A DNA stretch of 64,000 nucleotides from an uncultured virus (IMG/VR IMGVR_UViG_2814123061_000003) (lineage: Duplodnaviria; Heunggongvirae; Uroviricota; Caudoviricetes). The notes below the pieces were generated by a model, which was not told the DNA's origin, did no database searches, and worked only from the letters and a program-made list of their open reading frames with translations. Shown here one piece after another: positions 33,737 to 63,503 of this stretch. A program made the translations under genes and the position numbers. The stretch lies in IMG/VR virus record IMGVR_UViG_2814123061_000003. One strand, given 5' to 3'. Every line of letters starts with the position of its first letter. The first letter of the stretch is position 1.

Positions 33737-33790
33737 TGACCATCTAGCTCACCAGTGGCATGCTTTCTGCCTTTTGCAGGGGATAAAACC

Positions 33791-34063
33791 ATGCTTATTG
33801 GGTATGTCAGGGTGTCAACAAATGACCAGAACACCGCATTGCAGCGAACCGCGCTGGAATGCGCAGGATGTGAACTGATATTTGAAGAAAAGATCAGCGG
33901 AAAAACCTCGGAGCGTCCAGGGCTAAAGCGAGTGCTTAAGACCCTGGGAAAGGGGGATACGCTTGTGGTATGGAAACTAGATCGCCTTGGGCGCAGCATG
34001 CGGCATCTTGTCCTGTTGGTATCCACCCTTTATCGTAGGTTCCCGGCTTCATCATTTGAATGA
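33791..34063 (+). pseudogene. gin: Gin/Pin-type serine invertase with in-frame internal deletion
   Basis: IGYVRVS and WKLDRLGRS catalytic motifs fused near 34020 directly to the family's terminal VSTLYRRFPA; only 90 aa. Confidence 0.88.
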
Positions 34064-34075
34064 GATAAGCAGCGT

Positions 34076-34174
34076 GGCGTTTTAATTTGCACCGTGCGCA
34101 ATAGCGGTTTTTCGCTCTCTTGCTGCGGTGCATAATTTAATGCGTTTCGGTGCGAAAAATTTCGCCGCGCTACA
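34076..34174 (+). repeat. Mu-like right end with three transposase-binding sites and terminal CA
   Basis: CGGTGCATAATTTAATGC (34126), CGGTGCGAAAAATTTCGC (34148), inverted CGGTGCAAATTAAAACGC (34077-34094); TACA ends at 34174. Confidence 0.8.
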
Positions 34175-34439
34175 GTATATAGCGATACAGGGGGCATTGT
34201 GAGGTTTCACTTAGGGACGAGGAAGGATTTTAGATACAGCTTCGCACCCAGTGGGTTTGAATTTTCCGTATAAAATAAAGCAAATACTTTTTATCACTAA
34301 CTAATGGTATGGTCAAGGAAAAATTTAAATTTCTCGACTTTTTATAGTAAAAACGTACAATAGTCGCATCAAATGTGAATCAGCAGCGAGGGCGAACAAC
34401 ATGAGATGACTTTTAATTTAGACAACAAAGGGGGTCTCT

Positions 34440-35969: not shown

Positions 35970-36494
35970 ATGACAAAAAAGAAAGAAGCACATGAACTAA
36001 AGAAACGTGGACGAAAATCGAAAGAACACGACAATGCAGAATTACAAGATCATCTAAGAGGGGTACGCTACCTCAATCAACTTACTGATGAAGCACGTAG
36101 AGTAATATCCAATTCAGTAAAAAGTTACTTTGAGAAGAACAAGAAACGTAAGACTTTTGCAAACAAAAACATGCTGCTATTAGTAACTTCTACACGCTAC
36201 ATCACTGATATATCAATAAAGCACAATATTGAGTACTACGACGCTTTTACACAAAAGGAGTATGGCGATTCATCAGTACGTGATTACAAGATGGTTACGA
36301 TAGCCATATGTGAGGGTTTAAATGAACTTCTAAACAGTGGTAAGCCTATCAGAAGTGATACACCAGAGGGAGCACAGTACCTAACAGGTGAGGAAGCGTA
36401 TCAACTACGCGAAGCTATTGATGCTGGGTGCTCTAAAACCGATTTACTAAAGGTTATAGCTTCAATTTATCCCGAATTAAAACATTCTATGTAG
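35970..36494 (+). CDS. Hypothetical protein
   Basis: 174-aa ORF with SD AGGG. Confidence 0.7.
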   Translation: MTKKKEAHELKKRGRKSKEHDNAELQDHLRGVRYLNQLTDEARRVISNSVKSYFEKNKKRKTFANKNMLLLVTSTRYITDISIKHNIEYYDAFTQKEYGDSSVRDYKMVTIAICEGLNELLNSGKPIRSDTPEGAQYLTGEEAYQLREAIDAGCSKTDLLKVIASIYPELKHSM

Positions 36495-37154: not shown

Positions 37155-37231
37155 CCTACCATTTTTATAGGTCTGCTCATGGTCTTAATCATATGTTAGA
37201 ATCCTCATATACAAACGTCAGGGAAAACAAA

Positions 37232-37759
37232 ATGCAAATAATGAGGATGACATATGACGACATTGATAAAAATGGCTATGCCAAATTACACGTCTATGGA
37301 ATAGGAACTTTCTCAGTATTCAGTGGGCAAAACCCATATACCAATGATCCCAACTGTGCATTCATGCCAAACAGTGCAATCCCAACCGGGCGTTACTGGA
37401 TAGTAGACAGACCAACTGGATCAGTAGTGAATCAGATACGGGCATGGGGTGTTGATACAATAACTGGTAATGATCACTCAGAATGGTTTGCACTCTTCAG
37501 TGCTCAAACCATGACAGATAGCATTCTGATTAATGGTGTATCGCGTGGTAGTTTCCGTTTGCATCCATTACGGCCAGATGGAACGGGTGTATCAGAGGGA
37601 TGCATAACATTCGTCAATCGCCCTGATTTCTATACTGTACGTAGTCAGTTGCTACGTACTAAAAAGGTTAAAGTACCAGGTTCCAGAACTGGATTAATGG
37701 CGTATGGCTGGGTGGACGTACAAGGGAGGAGCAACTATGCGAACTGTAGGATTCGTTAA
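37232..37759 (+). CDS. DUF2778/Tlde1-like L,D-peptidase-fold protein
   Basis: FSVFSG, IPTGRYWIVDRP, WFAL, RGSFRLHP...SEGCIT (His/Cys). Confidence 0.85.
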   Translation: MQIMRMTYDDIDKNGYAKLHVYGIGTFSVFSGQNPYTNDPNCAFMPNSAIPTGRYWIVDRPTGSVVNQIRAWGVDTITGNDHSEWFALFSAQTMTDSILINGVSRGSFRLHPLRPDGTGVSEGCITFVNRPDFYTVRSQLLRTKKVKVPGSRTGLMAYGWVDVQGRSNYANCRIR

Positions 37760-38012
37760 GTATGCAGCCTTATATAGTATCTGCATCATCTTTTCATGGT
37801 GGCTATCAAGCTTTGGTAAGCCCCTGAACGGCATAACGCAATGGGCTATGGATACCGCCTATAGTACTTTCGGTTCCGGCCTGAGCGGGTCATATGAAGC
37901 TGATGCAGATCCAGTAAGATTCATAGCCTTAATCGTGATGGTACTCATCTACGCTACGGTACTGTTCCTGCTCATACGCTTAGCCCTCATAAAGTTCCAG
38001 AACAAACGCTAA
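37737..38012 (+). CDS. Two-TM membrane protein (possible partner or immunity)
   Basis: SD GGAGG; overlaps DUF2778 gene. Confidence 0.65.
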   Translation: MRTVGFVKYAALYSICIIFSWWLSSFGKPLNGITQWAMDTAYSTFGSGLSGSYEADADPVRFIALIVMVLIYATVLFLLIRLALIKFQNKR

Positions 38013-40626: not shown

Positions 40627-41301
40627 ATGATCAATACAACCTTCATAGCAGAACCAATCATGACAACATCAGGCCAGCTCATAGGCTGTGAACTGTTAAC
40701 CCGCTTCCATCGTGAAGATCTGCCAGTGCTGAACAGCAAGTACTTCATCATGGCTATGACGGTTGAAGGTAAGAAGGAACTACTCAAGCAACAACTACAG
40801 GCCATTGAAGTACGTGCGGCCTGGTTCAGAGATAACCGGCTTTTCTGTACCGTTAACGTTGATACCGTACAGGCACGGCTATGTGTCTTTGACAGGGATA
40901 TTATTCAGTTATTGGATAAGCTGGAGTTTGTGAGGCTGGAGATCTCAGAAGATTTTGAAGGTCTTGAAAAGGGTATTGAACATCCGATACTCAGAACACT
41001 GTTAAACGTTGGCTATCGCTTGTTCCTTGATGATCTTGGTTCAGGTCGTGCCAATGTCGCAGCACTAACTACTGGATGCTATGAGGCCGTAAAACTTGAT
41101 AGAGCGTTCTACCGTCAGGAAGTACAGAAACCCACATTCAACGTAATGATGAAGAACATCATGAAGTACTGCCATTATGTGATCGTAGAGGGAGTAGAGC
41201 AACGCCAAGAGCTACCAATATTACGCGATGCTGGAGTAACAGCGGTTCAGGGCTATCTATACCGTTCAGTACCATTCAATAAAGTTCACACACTTCTATA
41301 A
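40627..41301 (+). CDS. Stand-alone EAL-domain c-di-GMP phosphodiesterase (PdeH/YhjH-like)
   Basis: CELLTR, TVNV, LEISE, LDDLGSG, VKLDR, IVEGVE, VQGYLY all present. Confidence 0.9.
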   Translation: MINTTFIAEPIMTTSGQLIGCELLTRFHREDLPVLNSKYFIMAMTVEGKKELLKQQLQAIEVRAAWFRDNRLFCTVNVDTVQARLCVFDRDIIQLLDKLEFVRLEISEDFEGLEKGIEHPILRTLLNVGYRLFLDDLGSGRANVAALTTGCYEAVKLDRAFYRQEVQKPTFNVMMKNIMKYCHYVIVEGVEQRQELPILRDAGVTAVQGYLYRSVPFNKVHTLL

Positions 41302-41345
41302 CACCATAGTAAATACCCTATAGACAACAACTATGGGGTATACCT

Positions 41346-41723
41346 ATGAACATCACATTACACTTCCCTAAAGGCTCTACAAGCATCATAGACGGTACTT
41401 ATACAGGTTATGAGTATTCCCGTACCGATAAGCTAATCAACGCTCATATCACGTTTGATGAATCATACAAGCTATTCATCAACCATCACAGTTTAGTACT
41501 CAGCTATAAATACATTACGGTGAATCACCAGCACAGCTACACAATCGGTAGATGGGTTTATGACTGGAACACAATAGGCAATTACAAAGGCTCAGAGCGA
41601 GTACACCTCGACTATCTACAGTGCTTGACTCAGGAACTAATACAAGATGAATCATTGAACGGTAGACCTATAGATAACTATCGAATTGCTCTATTAATAA
41701 ATGAATTCAGAGAAGAAATTTAA
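41346..41723 (+). CDS. Hypothetical protein
   Basis: ORF preceded by TAAATA and an RBS-masking hairpin. Confidence 0.6.
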   Translation: MNITLHFPKGSTSIIDGTYTGYEYSRTDKLINAHITFDESYKLFINHHSLVLSYKYITVNHQHSYTIGRWVYDWNTIGNYKGSERVHLDYLQCLTQELIQDESLNGRPIDNYRIALLINEFREEI

Positions 41724-44718: not shown

Positions 44719-46238
44719 TGTTCTGGAAAAAGAAACGAATTGATGAACCTGTACAAGAACCACAACAACCAAAACAATTTGAACGTAAGCAGCTAACCGA
44801 TAATGCACTAAAACGTGAACTAAAAGAAATCCGTACTAACTCACAATCACCGATTATCAGTTTTGGATTCTCAGCAGGTAATACGGCAGGTAATATTAAT
44901 AGTATTATCAATATGACGTTGCCAACATTAGTAGCTAAATCACGTGAACTAAGTCTAAACAACGGTATAGCAAGAAAGTACTTTCAAGTGAACTCTGATG
45001 GCGTTACAGGGGCATCCGGTTTATATATTCGTCCTGATGTAAATCTTCATGATGATAATGAAGAAAACTTAGCTATCAATGAAGAACTTGAACACTTGTT
45101 CTATAAGTACGCAGATAATCCAGAAGCATTTAGTATGAATGGCAAGATGGACTTAGCAGCATTCCAGCGTTTAGTAGAACGTACACGTAGTATTGACGGT
45201 GAAGCGTTTATTATTGTTCATGATGTTAACGGTACTGTTAAGTTTGAACTCATTGACACTATGCGAGTACCTGTAATTGGTAATCGTATTTTTGATGATG
45301 GTAGTTATGTATCTAACGGCATCCATTTTGATCAACATGGAAAGGCTATTGAGTACTATGTAACTAAGGTTAATCCAACTTCATATACATATGAGATTGG
45401 CAACTATGACATTATCCCAGCATCCAGAATGCTTCACCTGATGATTGAAGATTATCCAAATCAACAGCGTGGTATTCCAGATATCGTAGCTGGTACTACA
45501 TTACTAAAAGACCTTGAAGCATTCATTAAAGCAGCAATCATATCTAAAAAACTTTCAGCCTCAGCAATGGCATTCATTACTAACTCAGCAAGTAATGATG
45601 AAGATGTTGATTTTATGAAAGGATATGAACCTGATTACTATGAAAATGACAGCCTACAAAGTGGTGCTTTAGTCGAACTTCAACCAGGGCAGAACGTAAC
45701 GAGTGTAAACCCAAATGGGGCAACAGATGGTATTACCGAATTCGTTAATGCTCAGATGCAACAGATCGCTATGTCTCTTGGTATTACTGAACAATCGCTA
45801 AGTGGTAGTACTGCTAATGCGTCATTCTCAGCAGCGAAGCTAACAGATCGCCTACAACGTCAAACATTTAAAACACGTACAAATGCTTTAACCACATTCG
45901 TACTAAAACCAATTTATTCACGTTGGCTAAAAGCTGAAATGTTACGTAATAAGGGCTTGAACCTTAATTTTAGTGATTTCGATAAATTAGTAAACGCTAA
46001 ATACGTTAGTGAATTCGTTGAATCACTTGATCCTCTTAAAGATGTACAAACACAGGTATTAATGATCGATAACAAGATCAAAAGCCGTTCTATGGTCGTT
46101 TCTGAATTTGGCTATGACCCATATCAAGTACTGAAAGAAATTGAACTGGAGGAAGCACAAACAATAAATACTACAAAGGAAGTTATTCAGGATGAAGAAA
46201 CCACTAACGAGGGAACTAAACCTACAGAAGATAAATAA
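44718..46238 (+). CDS. Portal protein, lambda family
   Basis: IDGEAF, QQRGIP, ASFSAAK, LDPLKD. Confidence 0.9.
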   Translation: MFWKKKRIDEPVQEPQQPKQFERKQLTDNALKRELKEIRTNSQSPIISFGFSAGNTAGNINSIINMTLPTLVAKSRELSLNNGIARKYFQVNSDGVTGASGLYIRPDVNLHDDNEENLAINEELEHLFYKYADNPEAFSMNGKMDLAAFQRLVERTRSIDGEAFIIVHDVNGTVKFELIDTMRVPVIGNRIFDDGSYVSNGIHFDQHGKAIEYYVTKVNPTSYTYEIGNYDIIPASRMLHLMIEDYPNQQRGIPDIVAGTTLLKDLEAFIKAAIISKKLSASAMAFITNSASNDEDVDFMKGYEPDYYENDSLQSGALVELQPGQNVTSVNPNGATDGITEFVNAQMQQIAMSLGITEQSLSGSTANASFSAAKLTDRLQRQTFKTRTNALTTFVLKPIYSRWLKAEMLRNKGLNLNFSDFDKLVNAKYVSEFVESLDPLKDVQTQVLMIDNKIKSRSMVVSEFGYDPYQVLKEIELEEAQTINTTKEVIQDEETTNEGTKPTEDK

Positions 46239-48105
46239 AGCTATTGATGTAGAGAATCGAACAATTGAAATTGCCTTTGCCAGTGAAACACCTGTTAAAC
46301 GTGATTTTGGTGAAGGGCTTGGTGTACTAAATGAAATTCTTAAATGTACTCCAGATGCCGTAAATCTTTCTCGCCTACTTAATGGTGCTCCATTACTAAT
46401 AGAACATGATTTCACTCGACAAGTGGGAGTTGTATTAGATGCGAGAGTAGACAGTGATCATATATGCCGTGCGACGGTAAAACTATCTTCAATTCAAGCA
46501 GCAGAAACTATTTTTACAATGATTCAGGAAGGTATCCGTACAAAGATTTCAGTAGGGTACAACATTGAATCATACCATATCGAAGGTGAAAACCTAATTG
46601 TAGATCTTTGGTCGCCATATGAAGTAAGTAGCGTATCTGTACCCGCAGATGATTTTGTTGGTGTTTCACGTTCACTAAATACAAATGAAATTCAACTTAG
46701 TGAAGGTGAACAAATGGAACTTGAAAACCAACAAGAAGAACTACGAGTTAATGACGTAGAAGAAACAGAAGTTGAAGTACAAGAAAGTACTGAAACAGAA
46801 GAAGTAGAAGTATTAGAAACTCCAGAAGAAGTACAAGAACCTGTAGAAGAAACAGAAGTATTAGAAACCGAAGAAGTAGTACAAGAACCTATTGATGAAG
46901 CTGAAACAGAAGAAGTACAGGAAAGTACTGGTGATGTTGAAGTAGAAGCACAAGAACGTGCCGCACTAAATAAAGGTGAATCTGACGAATATCGAATTCG
47001 TGAGTTAACCGCTATTGCTGAACTCTACAACGTAGATAGTTCGGAAGCAATTAAATCAGGTGTATCAGTTGAACAGTTTAAACAGGAAGTTCAAACCAGA
47101 TCCCTAAATAAAGAAACAAATCTAATTAACAAGGATGTTAATCTTATGAAAAAAAATGTAATTGGTGAACTAATCCGTAGTATCAACGAAGATAACTTTG
47201 ATTCTGTAAAGGTTGAACTTGAAAAAGGTCAACGCGGTTTCAAAATGGATTTTTCACGTGCTCTTGGTGCTAATACCGATACTCAAACAGCAGCAGGTAC
47301 AGTTAAAACTGTTTATGCGGATTCTTATCTAACCGCTCTATTGGCTCAATCCATTCTTGGTAGCCTAAATCCAACTATCTATAGTGGCCTTGCTTATCGT
47401 GGTGTACTTTCTATTCCTCGTCTAACTGGTCTAACTCCAGCGGCTCCAGGTAACTTTAAGTTCTACGAAGAAGGTGATGCGGTAACAGAATCTATTTCTA
47501 ACTTTGATTCAATAAAGCTATCTCCAAAAATGTTCGCGGGTTCTGTACCAGTAACTAAGCAACTAATGCTAAGTTCTGATACCGCAGCTACTTTTGTTCA
47601 AGATGCCCTAATCCGCTATGCGGCTAATGGTCTTGAAGCTCAGATCTTCTCTACCCTACAGGCAGCTATTCCAGAAGTGGAAACCGCAGCAGTAGGTACT
47701 ATGACCGTAGCAGACGTACAAGAAGCTATTAAAGCACTTGGTGTTGCTAACGTTGATGTACGTTCTTGTGTCGCAGTCATGCACCCAAGTACATTGGCTA
47801 AACTACGTCAAACCGCAGTAATGGGTAACACCGCAGCCGTATCTATGGTTGAAGGTCATCGTTTTGATATGTGGCTAAACGATGAAGTACGTGTAATTGA
47901 ATCTACCTTTGTTGAAGCTGATTCTGTAATCATCGGTGATTTCCGTAACCTAATCATTGCTAACTGGTCAGACGGTCAAGAAATTGATGTAGACACTACT
48001 ACTCACCGTGCCGCACAAATTACTGTATTCCGTTCATTCCAGTACTTAGCAACCGCTATTGCTCATGATGAAGCGTTTGTAAATCTAAAAATTAAATCCG
48101 CTTAA
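46192..48105 (+). CDS. Prohead protease-scaffold-major capsid fusion (HK97 fold)
   Basis: Protease motifs PLLIEHD, ISVGY, PYEVSSVSVPAD; acidic linker; capsid motifs LSPK, VMHP, IIGDF. Confidence 0.9.
   Translation: MKKPLTRELNLQKINKAIDVENRTIEIAFASETPVKRDFGEGLGVLNEILKCTPDAVNLSRLLNGAPLLIEHDFTRQVGVVLDARVDSDHICRATVKLSSIQAAETIFTMIQEGIRTKISVGYNIESYHIEGENLIVDLWSPYEVSSVSVPADDFVGVSRSLNTNEIQLSEGEQMELENQQEELRVNDVEETEVEVQESTETEEVEVLETPEEVQEPVEETEVLETEEVVQEPIDEAETEEVQESTGDVEVEAQERAALNKGESDEYRIRELTAIAELYNVDSSEAIKSGVSVEQFKQEVQTRSLNKETNLINKDVNLMKKNVIGELIRSINEDNFDSVKVELEKGQRGFKMDFSRALGANTDTQTAAGTVKTVYADSYLTALLAQSILGSLNPTIYSGLAYRGVLSIPRLTGLTPAAPGNFKFYEEGDAVTESISNFDSIKLSPKMFAGSVPVTKQLMLSSDTAATFVQDALIRYAANGLEAQIFSTLQAAIPEVETAAVGTMTVADVQEAIKALGVANVDVRSCVAVMHPSTLAKLRQTAVMGNTAAVSMVEGHRFDMWLNDEVRVIESTFVEADSVIIGDFRNLIIANWSDGQEIDVDTTTHRAAQITVFRSFQYLATAIAHDEAFVNLKIKSA
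46760..46950 (+). repeat. Degenerate tandem repeats encoding acidic E/T/V linker
   Basis: Repeated GAAACAGAAG, GAAGTATTAGAAAC and GTACAAGAACCT units. Confidence 0.75.
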
Positions 48106-48857: not shown

Positions 48858-50549
48858 ATGGCTCAAACATTTTTAGGGAATCTAACTACAGTATGGATTA
48901 ATACCGATACAACCAACGTTGATCCAAATGTCCGTACTTTTGTTCAAGTAGAAAACCTTTCAGCATTTCCAAGTTTTAGTGAATCAACTTCTGTTTCAAC
49001 TGTAGAAACATATGATAGTACTTACACCTCTAAAGTAGCGGGTGATAGTTCATATGGTGATATGACTATTTCAGTTAACTATATTCCAGGTGAAAACGCC
49101 GTACTTGATTCTGTTGTTGATTCTCAGCAATTAGTACAGGTCAAGGTAGAAATGCTTGATGAAGGTTCAAACGATACTACCGTAAACTATGTGCTTTACA
49201 ACGGTTACTTATCCAGCGTTTCCGATACGTCGGATATGGATCAGGTTGTTACCCGCTCATACGTATTCACACCAGAAAGCCAGGTATCAGCAGGTATTCT
49301 TGATGAATCAGTAGTTGAACTCTATCGCGGTGATTGGGGTGTTGGTTCGAACGGTAACGAGTTTCCAAGCTATCAAGGCCGTGACGGTAACTCATTCGTT
49401 AAGATCGCAGCAGCCAACGCACCAACAGGTGTTGATATGTTGGGTATCACTAACCTTGATGGTTCTAACGGTACTCAATTGGTAATGAGCAAAACCGGTA
49501 CGCCAGTACTCAACTTTCGTAACTTCTCAACAGCAAGTAACGGGGCATGGTACAAGGTCTACACCAGTGCTGATAAACCAACGCTAACAGAACTTGGTGC
49601 GGCAGCCGCTACCGATCTCAGTTACTACGTACCAATCACACGTACTGTCAATGGTAAAGCACTTACAGCTAACATTACTCTGGTAGCAGCAGATATTAGT
49701 GATGTTTACTCTAAGACCTACATTGATTCAAACGTAGTACCGAAAGTGTTTCAATTAAACGGACACGCATTATCAGGAACGGCGTTGAACTTAGTAGCGG
49801 CAGATATACTTGATGTGTATTCACAGACACAGGCTAATAATACCTTTGTAGCTAAAACAGTTACTGTTAACGGATTGCCTTTAAGTAGCAATATCACACT
49901 AACGGCAGCACAACTTACTGATATGGCATCTTTAGCATATAGTAATAGTACTTATGTGCCTAAGACGTTCTTAATCAATAACAAGCCATTATCTGGTACT
50001 AACATTCAATTAGTAGCAGCAGATATTAGTGATGTATATTCCCGTACTGAAAGCAACGGATTGTTTGCGTTACGTATCACTACAATTAACGGTTATGCTT
50101 TAAACAGTAACGTAACCTTGAACTATAACGATGTAGGAACGTATTCAAAAGCACAAATTGATGCCAAAGATGCCGCACTACAAGCGAACATTGATACCAA
50201 AGTAACTATCACTCAAGACCTTCTAACAATAAATAACGTAGAAGATACATTAGAACTTGATATGTCTGATGGTAAACGTGTTTTCAAAGCAACTCTAACA
50301 GCACCAGTAACACAACTCAGTGTTATAAATGCGAGTGGAAGTAATTTAAACAGCCAAACTATCACGATGTTATTAACACAAGGAACAGGGGCAAATAAAA
50401 TTTCATGGCCTTCTAATGTTAAATGGTCTTATGGGCGTGAACCAGTATTAACCTTTACGAAAGATTCAATTGATGTAATTCAATTCTTGTCAATAGATGG
50501 AGGAAGTACCTGGTACGGCTCCTTACTAATGGCGGATCTACAAGAATGA
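48858..50549 (+). CDS. Tail-tube domain fused to fibre repeats and a C-terminal domain
   Basis: First ~140 aa align with 53425..53898; five ~36-aa NGxxLxxxxxLxAAD-type repeats at about 49629-50165. Confidence 0.8.
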   Translation: MAQTFLGNLTTVWINTDTTNVDPNVRTFVQVENLSAFPSFSESTSVSTVETYDSTYTSKVAGDSSYGDMTISVNYIPGENAVLDSVVDSQQLVQVKVEMLDEGSNDTTVNYVLYNGYLSSVSDTSDMDQVVTRSYVFTPESQVSAGILDESVVELYRGDWGVGSNGNEFPSYQGRDGNSFVKIAAANAPTGVDMLGITNLDGSNGTQLVMSKTGTPVLNFRNFSTASNGAWYKVYTSADKPTLTELGAAAATDLSYYVPITRTVNGKALTANITLVAADISDVYSKTYIDSNVVPKVFQLNGHALSGTALNLVAADILDVYSQTQANNTFVAKTVTVNGLPLSSNITLTAAQLTDMASLAYSNSTYVPKTFLINNKPLSGTNIQLVAADISDVYSRTESNGLFALRITTINGYALNSNVTLNYNDVGTYSKAQIDAKDAALQANIDTKVTITQDLLTINNVEDTLELDMSDGKRVFKATLTAPVTQLSVINASGSNLNSQTITMLLTQGTGANKISWPSNVKWSYGREPVLTFTKDSIDVIQFLSIDGGSTWYGSLLMADLQE

Positions 50550-53368
50550 TAAGAAAACAAAATATCAGCAATGCCCAACAGATGATTGAAGGGCATTGGA
50601 AATTTTTAGAACGTAATACTGGTTTAGTTAATGATAATAAAACAGATCACTATGTACTAAACCCACAAAACGTTATATGTAACAACAGGCATTTTATAGC
50701 GGAAACGGGATGGGAAGCACAACCGGACGGTGATGCAACCACAGAAGGACAATCCTTAGCAATTCTTGGTGCTATCTATGCGTATCAGGCAACCAAAGAA
50801 CCGTACTACCTACAACGTGCTAAAGACTTTTTCAACGCCTATCACATGGCGTTCTTCCGTGGTGTAGCGTTTCCTGATCCACCTGATGGTTCATTGCGTT
50901 GTAACTGGATCTGTAACGGTAAGGCTCCAGTACTGGCACATTACCCATTAGATCCAGAGTATCCAACTCACGGCGGGTTCAAGGGCGTATTGTTCACATG
51001 GACGAACGGACAAACACAGATACCTCATGGTTCACCTAACTACGGTGAATACCTCGATGCTGTATGGTTTGCCTTTCCAGAACGGGCGGGTCTTGGTTGG
51101 AACCAGGTTAACGCAACTGCCTACGCATGGTTAGCCAGTGAAGATAGCATTGATTGGGATACTAAAGCCCCTACTTATGATGTTGATTGGATTGTTGACC
51201 GTACAGGCCGAAAGGTAGATAGCAATGGTGATGTACTGGCAGAAGGGCTAACAAGTCAGATCGGTACAGTCCAGCTCAAGGACACGTCTATAAACGGCAA
51301 TTACCGATTCAATTACGCAACTAAAAACCCTGTATCAGAGGGTGGTTATCTCATGGGGCGTAATGAGCGTTGGCACAACAGGCCAGTAAACGTACCTATT
51401 GATAACTATGGTACGCTCGACTTTTCTGATAACGCCTCAGATGCTGAATTGTGGTTCTGTCAGGCATGTAAATTACTATGGGATATTACAGGCGAACGTA
51501 TCTATTACTTAGCATGGCAGAATTCACTAATTACTTGTACTGGTTATTCTGATATTGATAAATTTGATATGTTCTTTCGTAAGAGTGCTATTGCTTTAAC
51601 GCCTTTTACAGATGGTATCTCATACGATTATTTCTATCCAAGTGATCAAGTAGCATCATATTCACGTGATTCAGATGGCTATATTGTCATAAATCAAAGT
51701 GCCTCAGCACAAACAACACTTGAACAACAATCTATATGGTTCAAGTTTAATAATAGTTCATCATTCCATGTTGAATATAGTGGTGTTGATACAACTGGTA
51801 AGCCGTTAAGCCTTGCTGTAGCTATGACAGTTAATAAAACAAAAACAGAAGATGGTGCTATTAGATACCGTTGCGGTTTACCTATTACTAATACAGATAA
51901 TAGTATTATTTCAATGGATATTCCAATGAACCACTTTACCAGAATTGCTAAACCTGATGGTGGACAGTACTTAACCGCAGATATGCGTATGTTATCTGAC
52001 TATGGGGATAATACAGTAACTTCACTTCAATATGTTTCCGGTATCGCTGGAACGTACTATGACAACGTGATTTCTACTACTATGGATTCTGACGGTAGTT
52101 CTACAGTTGGATTCTGGATCTTTGATGATGAAACACAGGACTTAAACAGCTTCACATACAGAACATATGCTGATGATTTTAATATCCGTATTGTTGATGA
52201 TCTTGGTTGGCGTTGGTGGACTATGCTACCAGCAAGTAACGGGGCATGGGTAACACAAACGTTTAATGTACTGGATTTTAAATTGAGTTCTTATCAACCG
52301 GATCATGAAGAAGGTGATGAACAGCCCGGACAACCAACACTAACAGGACGTGAAGAGTTTACGCTATTACTTGATACCGATCCGGTTGATGGTGTCTCAG
52401 GGCGTATTGACTGGTATTGTGTTAACGATTTGCCAGCACTTTATAATGATGGTGGTACAGGGGATTATTCAGTACTGGTTTCTCTAACTTTCAACGATAG
52501 TACCAGTAGTGGATATACAGCACGTTTAGGTGATTGTGTAATTCGTAATTACATGCTTGATAGTTTGTCATATACACCCGGACTAATACCATTTAGTAAC
52601 ATCACAGATCCATATGCTCAACTGTATTCCGGTTGGCGTGGTCTACCATATCCAGGTTATCAACTACCCGCTATATGGTGTTTCAAAGGTACTACAATTG
52701 ATCAAACCAGACTAAATAATAGTATTAAGTTCTTATGTGATGCTCAAGATTGGTTTACTAATAAATTCCATCCTGCTTTACCTGGTCCATGTGCTCAGGC
52801 TTATGTATGGAACCGTCAGGACGCATTAGCATATTCACCTGATGGACAACCGGATCAATTCATTATGCAGCACTGGTATGAAGAAGCATGGTCAGGTTAT
52901 GAACCTCGTGCGTTCTTTGGTGGTTGTGATGTGGTCCATGAACTATATCAACGTGGTGATTATGCTATTCCGCAGAACATTATTACGTACTGTAATAACT
53001 GGATGAATTACTTAAAGTGGTTCATGAAAAATAATGATGGTCACGCACCAACACGATTTAAAGATACAGGTGAAGTTATCTATGATGGCTTTACAGGTCA
53101 TATGTCTGGTTTGTGGCTTGCTGGTGCTTCAATGATGGCAATAGCAGGTTATCCAGATCACGAATTACTTGATTTACTATTCGCGGAAATTCAACAGAAC
53201 TATAACGTAGTTTCAGCTAATCACGTAATGAATGGTGGCTGGTCATCAGCTATCAGAAGTGGAACACCTACTACACCACAGAACAACTCTATGTTCTTTG
53301 GATTCTATACAGGTGAACTACTAAGAGGTTTAGCACTTTACATGAAGTACTACAACCAACATATATAA
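50546..53368 (+). CDS. Large tail-associated protein, GH8-like glycosidase
   Basis: ATTEGQSLAIL and DNASDAELW resemble GH8 catalytic motifs; ATGA-coupled to tube-fibre gene. Confidence 0.6.
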   Translation: MIRKQNISNAQQMIEGHWKFLERNTGLVNDNKTDHYVLNPQNVICNNRHFIAETGWEAQPDGDATTEGQSLAILGAIYAYQATKEPYYLQRAKDFFNAYHMAFFRGVAFPDPPDGSLRCNWICNGKAPVLAHYPLDPEYPTHGGFKGVLFTWTNGQTQIPHGSPNYGEYLDAVWFAFPERAGLGWNQVNATAYAWLASEDSIDWDTKAPTYDVDWIVDRTGRKVDSNGDVLAEGLTSQIGTVQLKDTSINGNYRFNYATKNPVSEGGYLMGRNERWHNRPVNVPIDNYGTLDFSDNASDAELWFCQACKLLWDITGERIYYLAWQNSLITCTGYSDIDKFDMFFRKSAIALTPFTDGISYDYFYPSDQVASYSRDSDGYIVINQSASAQTTLEQQSIWFKFNNSSSFHVEYSGVDTTGKPLSLAVAMTVNKTKTEDGAIRYRCGLPITNTDNSIISMDIPMNHFTRIAKPDGGQYLTADMRMLSDYGDNTVTSLQYVSGIAGTYYDNVISTTMDSDGSSTVGFWIFDDETQDLNSFTYRTYADDFNIRIVDDLGWRWWTMLPASNGAWVTQTFNVLDFKLSSYQPDHEEGDEQPGQPTLTGREEFTLLLDTDPVDGVSGRIDWYCVNDLPALYNDGGTGDYSVLVSLTFNDSTSSGYTARLGDCVIRNYMLDSLSYTPGLIPFSNITDPYAQLYSGWRGLPYPGYQLPAIWCFKGTTIDQTRLNNSIKFLCDAQDWFTNKFHPALPGPCAQAYVWNRQDALAYSPDGQPDQFIMQHWYEEAWSGYEPRAFFGGCDVVHELYQRGDYAIPQNIITYCNNWMNYLKWFMKNNDGHAPTRFKDTGEVIYDGFTGHMSGLWLAGASMMAIAGYPDHELLDLLFAEIQQNYNVVSANHVMNGGWSSAIRSGTPTTPQNNSMFFGFYTGELLRGLALYMKYYNQHI

Positions 53369-62547: not shown

Positions 62548-62587
62548 AAAAAGGGATAGTACCGTAATTGATACTATCCCTTTTTTT
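62548..62587. terminator. Bidirectional intrinsic terminator
   Basis: AAAAAGGGATAGTA...TACTATCCCTTTTTTT between convergent genes. Confidence 0.85.
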
Positions 62588-63032
62588 ACTTATTAGTTAG
62601 TTGTGCGATCATCGCATTAACTCTATTTGGTGTCTGACGATACCATAAACTATCTTTTGCTTGTTTGATTGCTTCCGTGTAGTTGGCATCACGTAGTGCT
62701 TGAATCATCTTTTTAAACTTCATCGTTCCAGATAGGCCAAGTTGAAAAATCATGATGATCATGAAGTCTTGCCAATCTTTAGGAATGGTTAGGTTTAGTT
62801 TACTTAGCTGGCTTGTTGCTATGGCTATATCTTTATCAAGTAGTCGAAGTACTTCAATCTCATTAATACCATTATTGAAATTCTCGTTTGGTAGTACCTT
62901 ATGTCCGTATCCTACGGTTAAGAATCCTTCACTATCTTTATATGGATAATACTTGTTGTTTCTAAAGTACCCCATACGTATTTGATATGCTCGTGAACCC
63001 TCATAATCTATGAGTCGTGTTTTTATATCCAT
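62586..63032 (-). CDS. T4-lysozyme-like endolysin (GH24)
   Basis: YEG, YKDSEGFLTVGYGH, MIFQLG, SLWYRQTPNRV parallel the T4 lysozyme motifs. Confidence 0.9.
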   Translation of the reverse strand: MDIKTRLIDYEGSRAYQIRMGYFRNNKYYPYKDSEGFLTVGYGHKVLPNENFNNGINEIEVLRLLDKDIAIATSQLSKLNLTIPKDWQDFMIIMIFQLGLSGTMKFKKMIQALRDANYTEAIKQAKDSLWYRQTPNRVNAMIAQLTNK

Positions 63033-63035
63033 TGA

Positions 63036-63071
63036 ATAAATACCTTATGATAATTTTTATAAGGTATTTAT
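63036..63071. promoter_or_regulatory. Palindromic bidirectional TAAATA promoter/RBS hairpin
   Basis: Perfect 13-bp inverted repeat ATAAATACCTTAT / ATAAGGTATTTAT filling the divergent gap. Confidence 0.75.
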
Positions 63072-63503
63072 ATGGAAGCATGGCAATACAACGAAGATTG
63101 GAGCGAGAAGGAATTAACAAACGGAAGTTATGTAGGATTCGTGTACTTGTTCCAATTTGAAGATAACACAAGCTACATAGGCAGCAAACAGATGTACAAG
63201 AGAGTTAAGGATATTAAGAAACTAAAAGATAATTCAATAGAAAACGGATGGCGTGAGTATAGTTCAAGTTCAAAAATAGTTAATTCCAAGATTGAAGAAG
63301 GGTTGAATTATACTCGTACCATCTTGTGGGCTTTCCCTTCGATGAAAGAAACACTTTTTGTAGAAACAGCATTAATCATAAATGAAGGACTAAAAACGGG
63401 TAATCTAAACCTTGCCGTAATGCATAAGGCAAGATTACCGAGTGGGAAAGATGCTGTACGTATTCGTGGAATCCTTCAATCATTATATGAAATACTCAAT
63501 TAA
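63072..63503 (+). CDS. GIY-YIG-like nuclease
   Basis: GFVY...SYIGSK, WREYSSSS, conserved Glu (FVETAL) and terminal LN. Confidence 0.7.
   Translation: MEAWQYNEDWSEKELTNGSYVGFVYLFQFEDNTSYIGSKQMYKRVKDIKKLKDNSIENGWREYSSSSKIVNSKIEEGLNYTRTILWAFPSMKETLFVETALIINEGLKTGNLNLAVMHKARLPSGKDAVRIRGILQSLYEILN

Follow-up and report, generated by a model that had tools for sequence, protein, structure and literature searches.

Lambda (C/Nu3), Mu (I/Z) and herpesviruses (UL26/UL26.5) produce their scaffold from a start codon that lies in frame inside the gene of the protease. The late promoters of T4-type phages have no −35 element and require gp55, as the available sections of PMC2988020 and PMC9026906 state; T4 itself uses TATAAATA at −13 to −6, and Aeh1 uses CTAAATA (PMC1524935, available sections). 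The fusion of a capsid protein with its protease has also been noted (PMC8601537, in the part available). Such a fusion creates a problem of stoichiometry: hundreds of capsid subunits go into one shell, which requires few proteases. Here we analyze a gene of this type in a stretch of 64,000 nucleotides (the window) from an uncultured virus of the Caudoviricetes (IMG/VR record IMGVR_UViG_2814123061_000003). The open reading frame (ORF), on the plus strand at 46192-48105, encodes a protease, a scaffold and a major capsid protein in 637 amino acids and belongs to a family of 30- to 36-kb enterobacterial prophages. It contains TAAATA boxes, Shine-Dalgarno (SD) sequences and internal in-frame ATG codons in an arrangement that is real and conserved. 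We consider it fairly probable that this head gene is a nested gene with nested transcription from gp55-type boxes. For its parts, nested translation starts are highly likely, and three nested proteins are probably made from the gene.

The ORF corresponds to the description in the initial annotation: an HK97-type prohead protease, an acidic scaffold and an HK97-fold major capsid protein follow each other in one frame (phrog_617, E = 2e-84). The fused protein also matches the fusion model NF045541 as well as TIGR01543 and TIGR01554; NF045541 and TIGR01543 score below their curated cut-offs on the 174-residue piece, the only piece for which the NF045541 cut-off was compared. Predicted folds match 8GTA and HK97. 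With an HK97-type protease carrying His and Ser and an HK97-fold capsid in a single ORF, the protein belongs to the protease-capsid fusion class (phrog_617/NF045541). In the alignment of relatives the protease domain spans residues 1 to 160 (46192-46671; the structural model is confident over about residues 9 to 161), contains invariant His72 (46405), Ser120 (46549) and Glu144 (46621), which from HK97-type proteases we presume to be catalytic, and ends at invariant Arg160. It is followed in the structure prediction by a low-confidence, disordered acidic stretch (residues 162 to 263) and a helical segment (about residues 264 to 304). The segment at 46714-47145, which includes these helices and in which 46 of 144 residues are acidic, presumably acts as the scaffold, given its position and composition.

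TAAATA occurs in the head gene region, always on the plus strand, at 46165, 46676, 46967 (with a C at 46966) and 47105, and the three sets of box, SD and in-frame ATG listed in the initial annotation are all present where it placed them. Box P1 (46165-46170; ATAAATA, codons I-N-T) lies inside the 3′ end of the portal gene, 21 nt before the full-length ATG at 46192; its predicted +1 is at 46176, and the SD AAGGAAG (46176-46182) completes the start signal (46176-46194). Box P2 (46676-46681; CTAAATA in TCA CTA AAT ACA, S-L-N-T; predicted +1 at 46687) lies 32 nt before the ATG at 46714 (M175), which together with the SD AAGGTGA (46703-46709; whole signal 46703-46716) is predicted to open a scaffold-capsid product of 463 amino acids and 50.8 kDa. 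Box P4 (47105-47110; CTAAATA, S-L-N-K; predicted +1 at 47116) lies 35 nt before the ATG at 47146 (M319). Here the SD AAGGA (47131-47135; whole signal 47131-47148) is formed by the AAG codon of Lys314 and the GA of an Asp codon, and the predicted product is the capsid protein alone (319 amino acids, 34.4 kDa). Box P3 (46967-46972; CTAAATA, A-L-N-K; predicted +1 at 46978) had been set aside as having no obvious start; it stands 173 nt before the capsid ATG and is the counterpart of the T4 and RB49 promoter inside scaffold gene 22. The initial annotation omitted a further TAAATA at 46232-46237 (K-I-N-K, overlapping the portal stop), which is followed by no start, is poorly conserved and is probably incidental.

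By itself the window provides weak evidence: it contains no excess of TAAATA (52 occurrences versus 47.6 ± 6.9 expected, a count that we do not use as support), CTA is common among its leucine codons (109 of 388), and all three internal boxes arise in 459 of 20,000 random synonymous-codon draws. The case for more than chance therefore rests on relatives, which we drew from viral contigs, 12 of 401 enterobacterial genomes and one phage record. The main counts refer to 23 lineages that are less than 80% identical; eight near-duplicates (at least 80% identity) were removed. Also left out were L071, which is truncated, L074, in which no intact ORF was found, and, as close relatives, L001-L012, L014 and G004.

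In these lineages, 48 of 62 Leu/Ile/Val-Asn-x tripeptides in the linker are spelled TAAATA. Outside the linker, this spelling is found in 4 of 51 cases within the gene (4 of 30 in the protease and 0 of 21 in the capsid domain) and in 53 of 469 within the remaining structural genes. The box appears as CTA, ATA, TTA or GTA followed by AAT-A, in L-N, I-N and V-N contexts, and ATA, a rare isoleucine codon, serves in 16 of the 23 I-N cases of the linker. Synonymous conservation of CTA AAT A was the property that the initial annotation had named for a check, and the motif survives both synonymous and amino acid changes. The capsid start (AAGGA or TAAGGA with an ATG 7 or 10 nt on) is present at the domain boundary in 20 of the 23 lineages, and the lysine of its SD has the codon AAG in 20 of 22 cases, versus 13 of 73 for other lysines before Asp or Glu. 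AAGGA or CAGGA precedes the full-length start in most lineages.

Box P2 and the scaffold ATG occur together in 15 of the 23 lineages, 11 of which pass a strict test for SD plus box, and the gap between them is exactly 32 nt in 9 of the 15. The other eight lineages have no box behind the protease, and seven of these eight also lack a Met within 50 residues; the distribution of the pair requires two or three changes on the tree. In 8 of the 15 carriers the box is shifted 10 to 76 nt away from the Arg of the Arg-Ser (R-S) pair, which argues that it belongs to the start and not to the Arg. The most constant box is the one that the initial annotation had passed over: upstream of the capsid start, at a distance of 80 to 260 nt, 19 of 20 lineages carry a P3-type box, in parallel to the T4 promoter in gene 22. 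The window is unusual among the lineages in having all four boxes. The comparison also covered 58 more distantly related fused head genes in which an ORF was found (L080 and L082-L142, some of them AT rich), drawn from viral contigs and genome searches: TAAATA is absent from 51 of these genes and stands at a linker-like position in only one.

A point missed by the initial annotation is that the box is used across the whole element and is likely the core of a gp55-type late promoter, with no cognate sigma factor found. TAAATA and the overlapping AAATAC are the top hexamers 18 to 45 nt before the starts of 453 genes in 23 elements, with a peak at 25 to 35 nt. The base at −1 of the box is A in 72% and C in 19%, nothing is conserved further upstream, and there is no −35 element; a short TAAATA core about one turn before the start is what gp55-dependent late promoters have. 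The predicted +1 is a purine at 99 of 132 noncoding sites, versus about 60% nearby, and the same core is found at similar gaps in the late genes of T4, RB49, KP15, Vi01 and RaK2. The antisense form TATTTA is the most depleted A/T hexamer of gene interiors (11 occurrences versus 104 expected from codon shuffles); the late genes of T4, RB49 and KP15 have 12 versus 41 expected, and rV5/phi92-like controls 23 versus 21. This purging points to an oriented promoter acting at the DNA level rather than to an RNA element. Between 41.3 and 64 kb of the window, 28 boxes lie on the coding strand and one on the opposite strand, before the sole oppositely oriented gene, that for lysozyme (62586-63032, minus strand). 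The boxes of this gene and of the GIY-YIG gene stand back to back at 63070 (−) and 63037 (+), in the layout of T4 genes 4/53, and show that the box follows gene direction. Boxes also precede early or cargo genes.

TAAATA is not an artefact of stop codons, which are present at only 17 of 140 noncoding sites. Sigma-70 promoters do not explain the pattern either: their matches are not in excess (12 versus 16.6), and TAAATA, unlike sigma-70 promoters, has no T at −7. A separate feature of the divergent pair is that the two boxes are the ends of a 15-bp hairpin (63036-63075; −16.1 kcal/mol) whose span includes the AAGGT SD of the GIY-YIG gene; by symmetry, it covers the SD of the lysozyme gene as well. 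Transcripts begun at the boxes would lose most of the 5′ arm. This hairpin resembles the translation locks of T4 late genes. At 41305-41350, a box is likewise followed by a hairpin (−18.3 kcal/mol), which lies over the SD of a 125-residue ORF at 41346.

From this pattern we infer that the boxes fire and that the starts are used, as well as in what ratios the products arise and where they are cut. Few full-length protease-scaffold-capsid chains would be made, from read-through or from P1 transcripts; scaffold-capsid chains would start at M175 behind P2; and the bulk of the capsid protein would start at M319 on transcripts from P3, P4 and upstream boxes. Because all products share the capsid domain, the protease and the scaffold would co-assemble inside the prohead, and both would then be removed by cuts between Arg and Ser or Ala, ending with the cut at Arg356|Ala357. 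As gp55-type (T4 late) promoters, the boxes would have the form (A/C)TAAATA, lack a −35 element and be written into I-N, L-N or V-N codons as the gene-23 promoter of T4 and RB49 is written into scaffold gene 22. The interpretation in the initial annotation is partly supported: sequence conservation favors the internal starts and a promoter-like behavior of the boxes, and internal promoters may set the subunit stoichiometry, as it proposed.

What, then, reads the boxes? PHROGs searches found no sigma factor, antiterminator or late activator among the 23 window ORFs and 150 early and right-end ORFs (one per cluster, from 151 eligible plus one added). Queries with gp55, gp33 and gp45 had no match in 65 loci; RaK2 gp55 itself is missed when T4 gp55 is the only query, so that divergent sigma factors can escape detection. 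The profile phrog_234, which does detect the sigma factors of T4, Vi01 and RaK2, found none in 173 element ORFs, three element records and 401 host genomes. Hence, no cognate gp55, gp33 or gp45 was detected in the genome that carries the boxes by searches that found the positive controls and that a very divergent factor would escape. We tentatively propose that the boxes are read by the gp55-type sigma factor of an infecting T4-family or RaK2-like jumbo phage. Such helper-read boxes could explain why no stand-alone isolate of the prophage family is present among 50,697 phage records, in which the best terminase match is a relative in a mixed T4-like assembly.

Several genes connect the element with large virulent phages. 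The lysozyme has its closest match, at 45% identity, in RaK2/K64-1 ORF073w, and an early gene for 174 amino acids (35970-36494, plus strand) is homologous to RaK2 ORF075 (fold match, E = 2.4e-6; profile match, E = 4.8e-16). ORF075 is confined to 10 Klebsiella jumbo-phage records and matches seven element ORFs, and ORF074 matches one more. In RaK2 the relatives of the lysozyme gene and the 35970 gene are 0.5 kb apart and about 7 kb from the gp55 gene. The cluster ORF073w-ORF075 (RaK2 NC_019526, 64202-65693) recurs in RaK2-like jumbo phages, with relatives of all three genes in the prophage family, and may be a captured fragment of the element or a donor to it. For the GIY-YIG gene, the matches listed include phages of 136 to 177 kb such as Bp7, S16 and STP4-a, which we take to be T4-like, and a 940-residue tail protein (50546-53368) is 55% identical to the lateral tail fibers of rV5/phi92/PVP-SE1-like myophages. 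To judge from these similarities, genes have been exchanged between the element and large virulent phages. The genes that it has in common with RaK2 suggest shared cells, not a direction of transfer or a dependence.

The 174-residue early protein was rejected as a hidden sigma factor, since it has no similarity to gp55 and no sign of a sigma fold; its best PDB match, which is SANT/SLIDE-like (Z 5.9), is ambiguous. The rV5/phi92-like phages were rejected as a source despite the tail fiber, since neither a TAAATA signal nor a similarity to T4 gp55 was seen in them. A conserved late ORF of 202 amino acids, considered as an activator, resembles DUF6441/minor tail Z clusters. Logos of the box flanks, at 5 to 12 sites each, did not single out one helper group. 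A family member (L143) forms the first 27 kb (1-27000) of PQ671644 (DCP80), a record labelled as a T4-like phage and containing gp55; rIIA blocks are duplicated in this record, and the whole resembles a mixed assembly made by concatenation, which makes it a weak lead only.

The strongest alternative, although we regard it as rather doubtful, accepts the nested starts and the promoters and ascribes their reading to an unrecognized factor of the element or the host. The element would be an autonomous prophage and the likeness of its boxes to T4 late promoters a matter of ancestry or convergence. Complete gene sets for the virion, lysis and a serine integrase fit this explanation, as do helicase and primase genes in some lineages, the boxes before early or cargo genes, the many small early ORFs without a family and the escape of RaK2 gp55 from a single-query search. 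However, the only nonstructural ORFs common to all lineages are those for the integrase, the lysozyme, the GIY-YIG protein, holin-like proteins and a lambda-Z-like protein, and both the phrog_234 result and the lack of a stand-alone isolate speak against it.

In a second alternative only the nested translation starts are real, and TAAATA acts in the RNA: it would enhance translation or mark a site of processing in a single long mRNA, and there would be no internal promoters. The SD and ATG signals are indeed better conserved than the adjacent boxes, the leaders before the starts are A rich and weakly structured, and mapped 5′ ends may be processing sites, as the available text of PMC2988020 warns. 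An RNA element, however, gives no reason for the purging of the antisense form from gene interiors, and the fixed gap, the purine at +1 and the divergent back-to-back pair fit a promoter. We consider this alternative improbable.

The initial annotation also suggested that R-S/A-L marks protease cleavage sites, as an alternative or an addition to internal starts. Arg is followed by Ser or Ala in 37% of linker cases, versus a background of 14%. At the predicted maturation cut Arg356|Ala357 (47257-47262), Arg plus a small residue stands in the 23 aligned lineages, the residue after this conserved Arg being A, S, T or G, and also D, Q or N. The R4C shell chain 8GTA (268 amino acids) aligns from about this site; the available part of the R4C paper (PMC10276861) does not mention a protease or cleavage. 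A cut here would leave a mature capsid protein of 281 amino acids (30 kDa), and further cuts may occur within the linker. In L004 and L008, a short duplication has produced H-A-L-G-A-R-A-L-G at the predicted maturation site, with R-A-L-G kept. Cleavage at Arg-Ser/Ala is probably an addition to the nested starts; as a replacement for them it does not account for the boxes that have moved off R-S. It is very improbable that the gene merely encodes one polyprotein cut at Arg-Ser/Ala, with L/I-N-x as a protein motif and TAAATA as a product of codon bias: the Arg pattern (including invariant Arg160) and the common codons CTA and AAT agree with it, but the same tripeptides are rarely spelled TAAATA elsewhere, the linker prefers the rare ATA codon, the boxes stray from R-S, Lys314 keeps its AAG, and cleavage is in any case compatible with nested starts.

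Several points weigh against our preferred reading of a nested gene with gp55-type promoters. The lineages are kin and not independent, so that p-values overstate the case. The claim of the initial annotation that each product has its own box holds for the window and not for the family: only 10 of 23 lineages have a box within 60 nt of the full-length start (P1 is changed to TTAATA in 7 of 14 close relatives), and only 8 of 20 have a proximal, P4-type capsid box at 32 to 50 nt (in L013, P4 is changed to CTAAAC). Since the scaffold start, too, is missing in eight lineages, an arrangement in three tiers is not a requirement. The sites do not follow the full T4 consensus, whose T at −13 is present at only 24% of 136 of them; Vi01, KP15, RaK2 and Aeh1 also deviate from this consensus. 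The predicted +1 of the in-gene boxes is a purine in 98%; this signal is confounded and was set aside, because it falls on codon position 1 in an acidic region. RNA contigs (two sets) cover the structural genes from 42.7 kb at a depth of about 0.2 to 9, versus 66 to 152 over 40.0-41.3 kb; they give no strand or transcript ends, cannot show starts and may contain DNA carry-over. No box-reading factor was detected in the element or its hosts, and borrowing one would meet obstacles. T4 degrades host DNA, and the element has a full set of virion genes and, in some lineages, helicase and primase genes. Moreover, gp33 represses basal gp55 transcription and activation requires DNA-loaded gp45 (PMC2988020, available text), which would be a hurdle for borrowing.

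The window gene offers exact coordinates for a solution of the stoichiometry problem at the levels of both transcription and translation, and silent changes could be used to mutate it. If the nested products are real, hundreds of database entries under a single "major capsid protein" are misannotated. If a helper gp55 reads the boxes, a common prophage family of Enterobacter, Klebsiella, Cronobacter and E. coli is a new kind of phage parasite, relevant to the purity and efficacy of therapeutic preparations of T4-like and jumbo phages. It is possible rather than probable that in widespread, virion-complete integrated elements the whole late program, including the protease:scaffold:capsid ratio, is turned on by the late sigma factor of a virulent phage to which they are unrelated; RaK2/K64-1-like jumbo phages and T4-family phages are the most plausible sources. 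If this is true, an attacker's transcription factor is the signal on which the prophage is induced, and the prophage leaves in particles of its own, perhaps to the detriment of the attacker. The literature that we searched, which included few subscription papers and whose supplements may bear on novelty, contains no description of the prophage family or of a prophage using a foreign gp55.

The AT-rich (38% GC) prophage-like element that holds the head gene begins near 34.2 kb (34175-64000, plus strand) and extends beyond the end of the window; its right end was read in relatives. It has a lambda-type terminase and portal, and its close relatives are named as proteins of Enterobacter, Cronobacter, Klebsiella and E. 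coli. An E. coli relative is a 34-kb island adjoining ybiT, a gene not mentioned in the available part of PMC10121019. At the left end of the element in the window (33755-34175) there is no integrase, and the element adjoins a prophage tail region of higher GC content (about 24-33.7 kb) at a truncated invertase of that region; relatives have a serine recombinase in this place, and one 37.5-kb contig has 2.9 kb of other sequence before the position corresponding to 34175. A fusion of a tail-tube domain and a fiber (48858-50549) precedes the 940-residue tail protein, which is present in only eight of the clustered loci. At 37193-38012, a cargo gene with a Tlde1 domain and an overlapping gene for a small membrane protein resemble an antibacterial effector-immunity pair. 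A stand-alone EAL-domain gene (40627-41301), common to nine elements, lies in the best-covered part of the RNA contigs.

How does this element compare with known systems? Like helper-dependent satellites (P4, PICI, PLE), it is integrated and rich in cargo, and it may depend on an incoming phage. Satellites, however, borrow virion parts, whereas the window element has its own terminase, portal, head, connector, tail, tape measure and tip genes and would borrow only the late transcription factor. The domain order of the head gene is that of the phrog_617/NF045541 fusions (VP882, phiHAP-1, Bas97, R4C and the Rhodobacter cluster RcC), and the mature shell chain of R4C aligns to the capsid part only; the tripartite gene of Gifsy-2 is likewise of the protease-capsid fusion type. 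The more distant members of this class, however, almost never have TAAATA in the linker and are annotated as single products. T4 genes 17/17′/17″ and 21/21′ share the nesting, RefSeq noting "internal transcription and in-frame translation" for gene 17 and internal initiation for gene 21, but their products are isoforms of the terminase and the protease and not a protease-scaffold-capsid series. In lambda C/Nu3, Mu I/Z and UL26/UL26.5, the capsid protein has a separate gene, whereas in the window gene it is the third nested product, and each tier may have its own promoter.

The closest parallel is the T4 family itself. Its late promoters share with the boxes of the element the TAAATA core, the lack of a −35 element, a similar gap to the start, the purine at +1, the avoidance of the antisense form and the back-to-back pairs. 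The parallel extends to the scaffold frame, in which the gene-23 promoter is encoded as S-I-N-T 134 nt before gene 23 in T4 gene 22 and as S-L-N-T (TCA CTA AAT ACT) 160 nt before gene 23 in RB49, with a second box at 33 nt; the T4 site is letter-identical to promoter DNA printed in the methods of a P23 study (PMC7892883, available part). In contrast to the T4 family, the boxes of the window lie in an unrelated, lambda/HK97-like prophage without detectable gp55, gp33 or gp45, their T at −13 is weak, and the protease, the scaffold and the capsid protein occupy one frame. Neither nested head genes nor late promoters of the T4 kind are new; what is new is their combination, in a prophage in which no sigma factor was detected, within a single protease-scaffold-capsid frame.

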